From assembly GCF_000026545.1 (NCBI RefSeq), contig NC_011601.1: 64,000 nucleotides of DNA. The stretch is one strand, 5' to 3'. Positions 30,646 to 30,981 of the stretch are shown in pieces. The DNA is from Escherichia coli O127:H6 str. E2348/69 (lineage in GTDB: Bacteria; Pseudomonadota; Gammaproteobacteria; Enterobacterales; Enterobacteriaceae). A program made the translations under genes and the position numbers. Below the pieces are notes generated by a model. That model was not told where the DNA came from. It ran no database searches and was given only the letters and a program-made list of their open reading frames with translations. The stretch's first letter is position 1. Every line of letters starts with the position of its first letter.

Positions 30646-30981
30646 TTACGAATGATCATTCTGTTTAGTCTTCATGAGAAAATCCCGAATCTTTGCCAAG
30701 TTTGAATTTTCGGGGATTGAATCCATGTACGGATCACGCTCAAACACTAATTGCTCAGATTCAACGAAAGCCTGCCACTCTACTGGGTCTAGCTCAAATC
30801 CCATTGCTGTCATATCACTTTCATCTTCCCCCTCGATCCAGTGGACTAAATAAAACAATTCATCATCAGGAGAATCATCCTCACCATCAACAATATCAAC
30901 ATCGGTTACAGTGATACGTAGGGTGGGATCGATTTTTGAGACATAAATTCCTAACTGTGGTATAGGGGGAATATTGTTCAT
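30646..30981 (-). CDS. Small highly acidic protein (cargo)
   Basis: 111-aa ORF rich in D/E (DVDIVDGEDDSPDDELFY, EGEDESD); antisense to flanking genes. Confidence 0.5.
   Translation of the reverse strand: MNNIPPIPQLGIYVSKIDPTLRITVTDVDIVDGEDDSPDDELFYLVHWIEGEDESDMTAMGFELDPVEWQAFVESEQLVFERDPYMDSIPENSNLAKIRDFLMKTKQNDHS

Follow-up and report, generated by a model that had tools for sequence, protein, structure and literature searches.

A highly acidic DUF8087 protein encoded by a mobile one-gene cassette beside the cos site of a P2-like Escherichia coli prophage

Introduction

A small minus-strand gene in an E. coli prophage raises two questions at once: whether it belongs with the PRTase/DprA gene pair that it adjoins, and what so acidic a protein might do for the element that carries it. 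The gene occupies 30646..30981 (−) of the stretch of DNA analyzed here, 64,000 nucleotides that we call the window, and an earlier note on this DNA had wavered between a functional part of the PRTase/DprA pair, an immunity partner of the neighbouring toxin and an independent anti-restriction cargo. We characterized the gene, its protein family and its place in the prophage, compared its neighbourhood in a sample of ~60 loci, and weighed the possible functions against these results.

Results

The ORF begins with ATG, comprises 111 codons, and is carried in RefSeq as CDS WP_001059831.1 with the product name 'DUF8087 domain-containing protein'. With 15 aspartate and 11 glutamate residues (26 acidic) against four lysines and three arginines (seven basic), the product has a net charge of −19, and our own titration gives a pI of ~3.6, the Biopython value of 4.05 being that program's lower limit. 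Its net charge per residue, −0.171, is by far the most negative among the 64 non-overlapping ORFs of at least 90 aa in the window (the runner-up has −0.054), and the charge and pI computation proposed earlier thus bears out the description of the protein as strongly acidic. The protein is cytoplasmic and has neither a membrane segment nor a catalytic motif. The gene is also AT-rich, as had been claimed (40.5% G+C, compared with 50.1% for the window), a property matched by its neighbours (40.7% for ShosA and 41.1% for the adjoining spacer), and from the repressor/integrase block to the portal gene it is indeed the only gene on the minus strand.

Conservation of the ORF is evident at the level of the protein family. 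The profile phrog_17127 covers residues 1–111 of the 111-residue protein (E = 2e-70), and a homologue search of 5.8 billion proteins recovered 61 clusters, all from Enterobacterales and all 61 with a precomputed assignment to Pfam PF26332, the family that RefSeq names DUF8087. When 1.84 billion cluster representatives were searched with a word-free profile method, only 34 clusters (at 50% identity) emerged, some of them shorter relatives of 70–106 aa, and the common core amounts to ~70 residues. The family is kept down to 30–40% identity, and its acidity is kept with it (median net charge −0.16 per residue). Alignments place P8, G11, Y13, W69 and a D-M-S-A ... E-L-D-P-x-E-W stretch of the query among the core residues, of which P8, G11 and W69 never vary, while the D-M-S-A / E-L-D-P-x-E-W stretch shows high but incomplete conservation. 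When six diverged copies taken from several genera and contexts are compared, identity at first, second and third codon positions is 96.1%, 96.2% and 86.0%, a divergence at third positions 3.6-fold that at positions 1 and 2, and this pattern indicates purifying selection on the DUF8087 protein. All 40 E. coli matches listed are annotated as CDS and none is flagged as a pseudogene, one of them being a frameshift-truncated CDS. Among sampled copies the sole disrupted one lies in E. coli strain Br_190_kylling (locus L028, 4676–4837), where a one-base insertion truncates DUF8087.

Searches for a functional label returned little. NCBIfam and PADLOC searches of the protein gave no match, nor did a Pfam-A scan of the query and 40 family members made with a Pfam-A copy that lacks PF26332; the label DUF1292, attached to some AFDB entries, was rejected, as it found no match in the same scan. 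No domain fusions were seen among homologues, whose full-length matches span 44–152 aa, so the family offers no 'Rosetta stone' clue. A literature search for DUF8087, PF26332, phrog_17127 and WP_001059831 found nothing relevant, and the protein sequence was not found in the accessible part of the supplementary tables of PMC9122126.

Several candidate signals flank the ORF. A strong Shine-Dalgarno site, AAGGAG, can be read at 30987..30992 (−), 5 nt ahead of the ATG. Farther upstream, a block at 30997..31081 (−; −100 to −16) is 91–98% identical among the six copies and so exceeds the 86% identity of their third codon positions. The only promoter-like pair kept in the six copies (exact in five) consists of TTCACA (31042–31047) and TATTTT (31017–31022) separated by a 19-nt spacer that holds an ACAG-N8-CTGT inverted repeat; this pair, a poor sigma-70 match, may be the promoter of DUF8087. 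A stricter sigma-70 scan found no canonical promoter upstream of the gene, and neither an Ogr-type TGT-N12-ACA site nor a LexA box was found there. On the other side, a G+C-rich hairpin, GCCCCCA ... TGGGGGC, lies at 30462..30491 between the convergent DinI-like and DUF8087 genes (dG −15.7 and −19.9 kcal/mol, z −2.3 and −1.8); its seven-base-pair stem and long loop make a candidate two-way terminator, which the terminator scan missed because the loop is long. An Rfam search of 30300–31600 returned nothing. The earlier note had asked whether the ORF might be conserved in no homologous locus; it is conserved, as the family match and the codon-position constraint demonstrate, and together with the Shine-Dalgarno site these lift 30646..30981 beyond a chance ORF. 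On this sequence evidence it is a real, conserved gene under protein constraint, a typical full-length member of an already catalogued family, and a prophage accessory gene in a hotspot flank.

AlphaFold2, supplied with a 40-sequence alignment, yielded a model with mean pLDDT 84 and pTM 0.71 in which strands are predicted at residues 11–15, 22–31, 43–50, 60–64 and 78–82 and helices at 66–75 and, C-terminally, 94–109. The predicted fold is a five-stranded SH3/Tudor-like barrel with a C-terminal helix, and two D/E-rich loops, 32–42 and 51–59, are modelled at lower confidence. The acidic loop at 32–41 varies in length and is missing in distant members, so it cannot be the conserved functional element. 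A sequence-profile search of the PDB returned nothing even at E ≤ 10, an AFDB50 fold search found only members of the same family, and the viral structure library BFVD gave no match at E ≤ 0.001. The structure prediction that had been proposed as a check therefore delivered a barrel with two D/E-rich loops and no informative structural relative.

This region of the window matches the P2-like prophage of E. coli E2348/69 at 100% identity, with the local order Dam methylase, replication endonuclease gpA, a 63-aa ORF, the DinI-like gene (30148..30453, phrog_189), the convergent DUF8087 gene (−), cos, ShosT–ShosA, portal (−) and terminase (−). The phage cos site, GGCGTGGCGGGGATACGAG at 31361..31379 (+), is identical to positions 1–19 of the annotated cos of Salmonella phage SEN8, and the last base of the SEN8 record corresponds exactly to window position 31360. 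It follows from this position that packaged DNA closes on the right with DUF8087 as its last gene and opens on the left with ShosTA as its first unit, and that with cos between them the two are neighbours only in the circular or integrated form. The DUF8087 slot thus extends from the DinI-like gene to cos, at the right end of the virion chromosome, and ShosTA sits across cos in a separate, rapidly swapped slot between cos and the portal gene. The DinI–cos slot is stable, compared with ~19 architectures of the cos–portal slot in 26 related contigs, and the E2348/69 prophage ceases to be homologous to that of E. coli B at ~31386, just beyond cos. Other phages of the group have an empty DinI–cos slot or another minus-strand gene in it. 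A 90-aa ORF at 31253–31525 (+) with a match to phrog_28685 spans cos and is kept in ~1,300 E. coli genomes; its conservation probably reflects a DNA-level packaging signal and is not evidence for a protein.

The PRTase/DprA pair is, on its PADLOC matches, the ShosTA (Shosta) defence system, with ShosT (PRTase) at 31510..32085 (+; 3.7e-14) and ShosA (DprA-like) at 32075..33049 (+; 2.8e-70), also known as the 'DprA + PRTase' system of the P2 hotspot (PMC9122126). The ShosT ORF carries no CDS in the RefSeq annotation of E2348/69 and two other strains, despite its PADLOC match, and its PHROG match begins at residue 34, so that the true start may be near 31609. We considered whether DUF8087 might be a third component, immunity factor or regulator of this toxin-antitoxin defence system, a reading that could draw on the mere 528 bp separating the DUF8087 and PRTase ORFs in the window and on the fact that antitoxins can be acidic proteins. 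The two loci, however, lie on opposite strands with cos in between, and PADLOC finds no ShosT or ShosA homology in the DUF8087 protein. The identical protein WP_001059831.1, in the same slot, adjoins retron Ec86 in E. coli B, GmrSD in E. coli W and, elsewhere, retron Ec67, a TIGR02391 / PD-Lambda-3-like HEPN protein or an ImmA/IrrE peptidase pair, meets ShosTA again in further E. coli genomes, and is found with at least ten other cargo types in all. Across 26 IMG/VR P2-like contigs with DUF8087 in the slot, four have ShosTA in the cos–portal interval, and other cargos there include AbiU, PDC-S06, an Old-like ATPase, RT-Toprim retrons, HEC-06/type IV enzymes, bSEFIR, NsnA-like and SIR2-like proteins; on sampled E. 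coli chromosomes carrying DUF8087, ShosTA is present in three of nine (E2348/69 included).

The sufficiency of the two ShosTA genes points the same way. E. coli K-12 is not known to have a P2-like prophage, and BL21(DE3), host in one of the two studies, itself carries DUF8087. ShosT and ShosA alone defend both in MG1655 (PMC9122126) and in BL21(DE3) (PMC11961720); the BL21 result by itself is thus no proof of independence, and it is the MG1655 result that speaks to it. With the antitoxin role already filled by ShosA and no consistent co-occurrence, the proposals that the acidic gene belongs with the PRTase/DprA pair or protects against the neighbouring toxin do not hold, and a part for DUF8087 in ShosTA is very improbable. 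Of the third proposal, the independent-cargo part stands: DUF8087 is very probably an independent cassette and not a component of ShosTA.

Comparison of copies reveals what moves. DUF8087 is a self-contained, one-gene accessory cassette ('moron') of P2-like prophages, ~0.6 kb long, in which a ~190-nt 5′ region precedes the ORF and a piece of a P2-type integrase gene follows it. In an alignment of eight copies homology runs from ~190 nt 5′ of the ATG to shortly past the stop, and in the window homology to the copies of other elements gives the 5′ region its full extent of 30982..31171 (−). The integrase 5′ fragment is present in every copy, directly at and overlapping the DUF8087 stop, and measures 71 codons in E. 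coli IMT16316, Serratia and Lonsdalea, ~49 in Morganella and Providencia, and 16 in E2348/69, where the P2-type remnant MIIRKCKHSSGKWFCK* lies at 30609..30659 (−). This remnant indicates that the cassette came from a DUF8087–int junction. The integrase overlap also suggested an excisionase-like role, which we rejected given the extreme acidity of DUF8087; excisionase-type proteins are basic DNA binders.

Such a junction is intact in P2-like prophages of Klebsiella aerogenes. There the C repressor gene is followed by one for a Flk_N-like protein (215 aa, with a C-terminal membrane anchor), by DUF8087 and by an integrase gene whose start overlaps the stop of DUF8087. Three more diverged lineages repeat this arrangement, their Flk_N-like proteins at 47–65% identity and their DUF8087 at 41–57% identity to the query, and yet another lineage has the order C, integrase, DUF8087. 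DUF8087 holds the repressor-operon position at loci L009–L013, L016, L031 and L065–L067; in the E2348/69 window, by comparison, its place is the DinI–cos slot, where it has a 5′ region of its own. The Flk_N-like gene lies directly 5′ of DUF8087 (L009, 6343–6990; L031, 506–1135; L065, 7227–7970), and the joint occurrence of the two genes in repressor operons of four diverged P2-like lineages suggests a two-gene module. No Flk_N remnant was found upstream of the cassette in the window. The intact operon junctions and the integrase fragments together argue that the cassette was copied out of a lysogeny operon, and we infer from these gene orders a source operon of the form repressor–(Flk_N-like membrane protein)–DUF8087–integrase.

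Two further features of this operon were observed. PHROG profiles of Ant antirepressor families match the Flk_N-like protein weakly, and a motif N-R-x-A-G-R-D-F/Y-N/H-E at the C terminus of the C repressor occurs again at the N terminus of the Flk_N-like protein that follows (L031, 113–496 and 506–1135; L065, 6857–7315 and 7227–7970). The corresponding repressor–integrase interval of the E2348/69 window is filled by other cargo, a 505-aa Walker-A (GAGKS) NTPase of phrog_8614 at 21585–23102 (−), between the C repressor (23128–24051) and the integrase (20446–21498). This interval is a second cargo slot, the one that holds the Flk_N-like gene and DUF8087 in K. aerogenes prophages, and repressor–integrase and integrase–att intervals have been described as minor P2 defence hotspots (preprint 10.64898/2026.02.27.708500). 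Some P2-like contigs and islands carry a longer cassette with DUF8087, the integrase fragment, a 127-aa membrane protein (phrog_26730) and, in some, an acetyltransferase, lying between DUF8087 and the DinI-like gene (L059, 8323–9610, where the addition is of GNAT type; also L060, L061, L004 and L021).

The cassette occurs in varied settings. DUF8087 occurs in 213 of 5,426 complete E. coli genomes. An allele of at least 95% identity accounts for 132 of these, E. coli B, BL21 and W among them, and every sampled case is in the DinI–cos slot; an allele of ~90% identity, in 82 genomes, resides in an integrase-bounded island that adjoins a 1,589-aa TmtA/Mko-like helicase. The same cos region is present in ~1,300 E. 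coli genomes, and ~1/10 of such prophages have the cassette. The gene is identical in E. coli B, BL21, BL21(DE3) derivatives and W, and in E. coli B it is intact beside retron Ec86 in a defective P2-like prophage deleted from the scaffold gene to the lysis genes. In other genera the cassette adjoins Mokosh type II MkoC (Morganella and Providencia), lies near a VirB4 type IV secretion module of a conjugative element (Lonsdalea and Symbiopectobacterium) or adjoins a filamentous-prophage region (Xenorhabdus), and one lone cassette remnant stands beside pgsA. P2 genes are absent within 10 kb in some of these contexts (the islands, the conjugative element and the pgsA remnant), and purifying selection persists. 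DUF8087 is almost always accompanied by defence genes. Among 72,556 plasmids there is a single match, to a P2-like phage-plasmid, a tblastn search of 50,697 phage records did not find the gene, and a scan of species-representative genomes found only four loci.

Discussion

What might the cassette do for its carriers? Because it was apparently copied from a lysogeny operon, the DUF8087 protein is probably made in the lysogen, expressed from the prophage. Its function would accordingly be sought in the lysogen and is probably neither P2-specific nor tied to the entry stage, as the operon origin, the intact copies in the defective E. coli B prophage and in prophage-free remnants, and selection outside phages suggest. 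Ocr, Arn and DinI inhibit through an acidic surface that occupies a basic site, with other folds. By analogy, DUF8087 would act stoichiometrically, its acidic surface occupying the basic nucleic-acid-binding site of a target protein and so blocking that target; we hold this tentatively, as a plausible reading that falls somewhat short of even likelihood. For an acidic SH3-like protein, a precedent for DNA mimicry exists in CarS (PMC2926617).

The identity of the target divides this reading. In one version the target would belong to an incoming phage or satellite, and its block would help the lysogen. DUF8087 would then disable a DNA-binding protein of phages or P4-type satellites and, in some lineages, work with the Flk_N-like tail-anchored membrane partner; this is possible, if rather doubtful. 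In the other it would block a host defence or repair enzyme, which we regard as more doubtful still. We lean slightly towards exclusion of incoming elements. Known counter-defence genes are common on plasmids and phages and DUF8087 is not, and defence effectors are rarely small non-enzymatic proteins; both points count against the inhibitor reading. Taken as a whole, the proposal would make DUF8087 an unrecognised SH3-like acidic 'mimic' family in mobile-element conflicts, a single-protein exclusion factor or counter-defence inhibitor that its 0.6-kb cassette moves among phages, islands and conjugative elements; by analogy with the known mimics we consider this conceivable, with the balance tipped against it.

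An alternative takes the operon origin more literally. DUF8087 could regulate P2-type lysogeny or integration by binding the integrase, the C repressor or an antirepressor, in the manner of Tum/DinI-like proteins or P4 epsilon, and would then tune induction, excision or satellite hijacking. Much of the genomic arrangement is compatible with such a role: DUF8087 lies between C repressor and integrase in four diverged lineages, it overlaps the integrase gene, either with its end on the integrase start or with its start on the integrase end, the integrase 5′ fragment is kept in every cassette copy, the window copy is convergent with a DinI-like gene, the frequent partner is a Flk_N-like protein with weak matches to Ant antirepressor families, and CarS is an acidic SH3-like protein that acts as an antirepressor (PMC2926617). 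Against it, however, purifying selection acts where P2 genes are absent within 10 kb, the repressor–integrase interval is a general cargo slot that here holds the 505-aa NTPase, and only ~1/10 of E. coli prophages of this cos type carry DUF8087. We therefore judge a lysogeny regulator unlikely.

Classical anti-restriction of the Ocr/ArdA kind, in which DUF8087 would be produced as the element enters and would inhibit type I restriction-modification or a comparable host nuclease so that the phage or element becomes established, is not supported by these results and is distinctly unlikely. E. coli B has working EcoB restriction of unmodified DNA and active RecBCD, and it carries the identical gene, which argues against a constitutively active block of EcoB or RecBCD at native expression; natural DUF8087 carriers retain restriction. 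The size and charge of the protein do fit known DNA mimics (pI range in PMC2926617), and its carriage in several kinds of mobile element and its place as the last gene before cos also speak for this reading. But the protein has no sequence or structure likeness to Ocr, ArdA, KlcA, Arn or any PDB chain, the gene is encoded on the strand opposite the early operon and in relatives belongs to the repressor–integrase operon, and one plasmid in 72,556 and none of 50,697 phage records carry it. The comparison with T7 gp0.3 (Ocr) and ArdA thus extends to size, extreme negative charge and mobile-element carriage. Ocr and ArdA are helical or elongated dimers without homology to DUF8087, which is a predicted beta-barrel and, unlike them, is no early or leading-region gene and is almost absent from plasmids and sequenced phages. 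Last, a decaying or functionless hitch-hiker, kept only through its place in the recombination arm next to cos, could account for the one frameshifted copy and the missing canonical promoter, but it is highly improbable given the 3.6-fold third-position excess, a family kept to 30–40% identity in 34 clusters, 40 of 40 listed E. coli matches annotated as CDS without pseudogene flags, and the strong Shine-Dalgarno site.

For the preferred reading, a stoichiometric inhibitor of a nucleic-acid-binding protein, CarS, the antirepressor of Myxococcus xanthus (PDB 2KSS), is the best model of the way in which an acidic SH3-like protein can function. DinI offers a second parallel: this small protein binds the DNA-binding protein RecA stoichiometrically by means of an acidic surface and thereby regulates it, and a DinI-like gene is the immediate convergent neighbour of DUF8087; DinI nevertheless has another fold and belongs to another family (phrog_189, compared with phrog_17127), and the adjacency is limited to the E. 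coli lineage. CarS resembles DUF8087 in being small (86–111 aa) and highly acidic; it is a five-stranded SH3-like barrel, the kind of fold tentatively predicted for DUF8087, and as a DNA mimic it sequesters the recognition helix of a DNA-binding protein (PMC2926617). In genomic setting the nearer comparison is with P2 old, tin and fun(Z), which share with DUF8087 the character of accessory AT-rich genes with their own signals in the variable region around cos, and which are expressed from the prophage in the gene A–gene Q region (PMC9122126). No sequence similarity links them to DUF8087, and both Tin and the ATPase-nuclease Old exceed it in size; they are also classical non-essential exclusion genes, a role that for DUF8087 is hypothetical. 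Exclusion genes of the rexAB or sieB type belong to the repressor operon and so are expressed in the lysogen, a position that DUF8087 has in related prophages and lacks in the window.

These findings place DUF8087 on the constant flank of the much-studied P2 gpA–Q defence hotspot and indicate that the published 'hotspot' is really two cos-divided slots that differ in turnover: a stable DinI–cos slot, which in ~1/10 of E. coli prophages with this type of cos holds the DUF8087 cassette, and a cos–portal slot whose contents are swapped rapidly. Since E. coli B, BL21, BL21(DE3) and W carry the gene, many phage-defence experiments have been run with DUF8087 present, the ShosTA study in BL21(DE3) (PMC11961720) among them. 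If DUF8087 inhibits or excludes anything, it would be a hidden variable in such assays.
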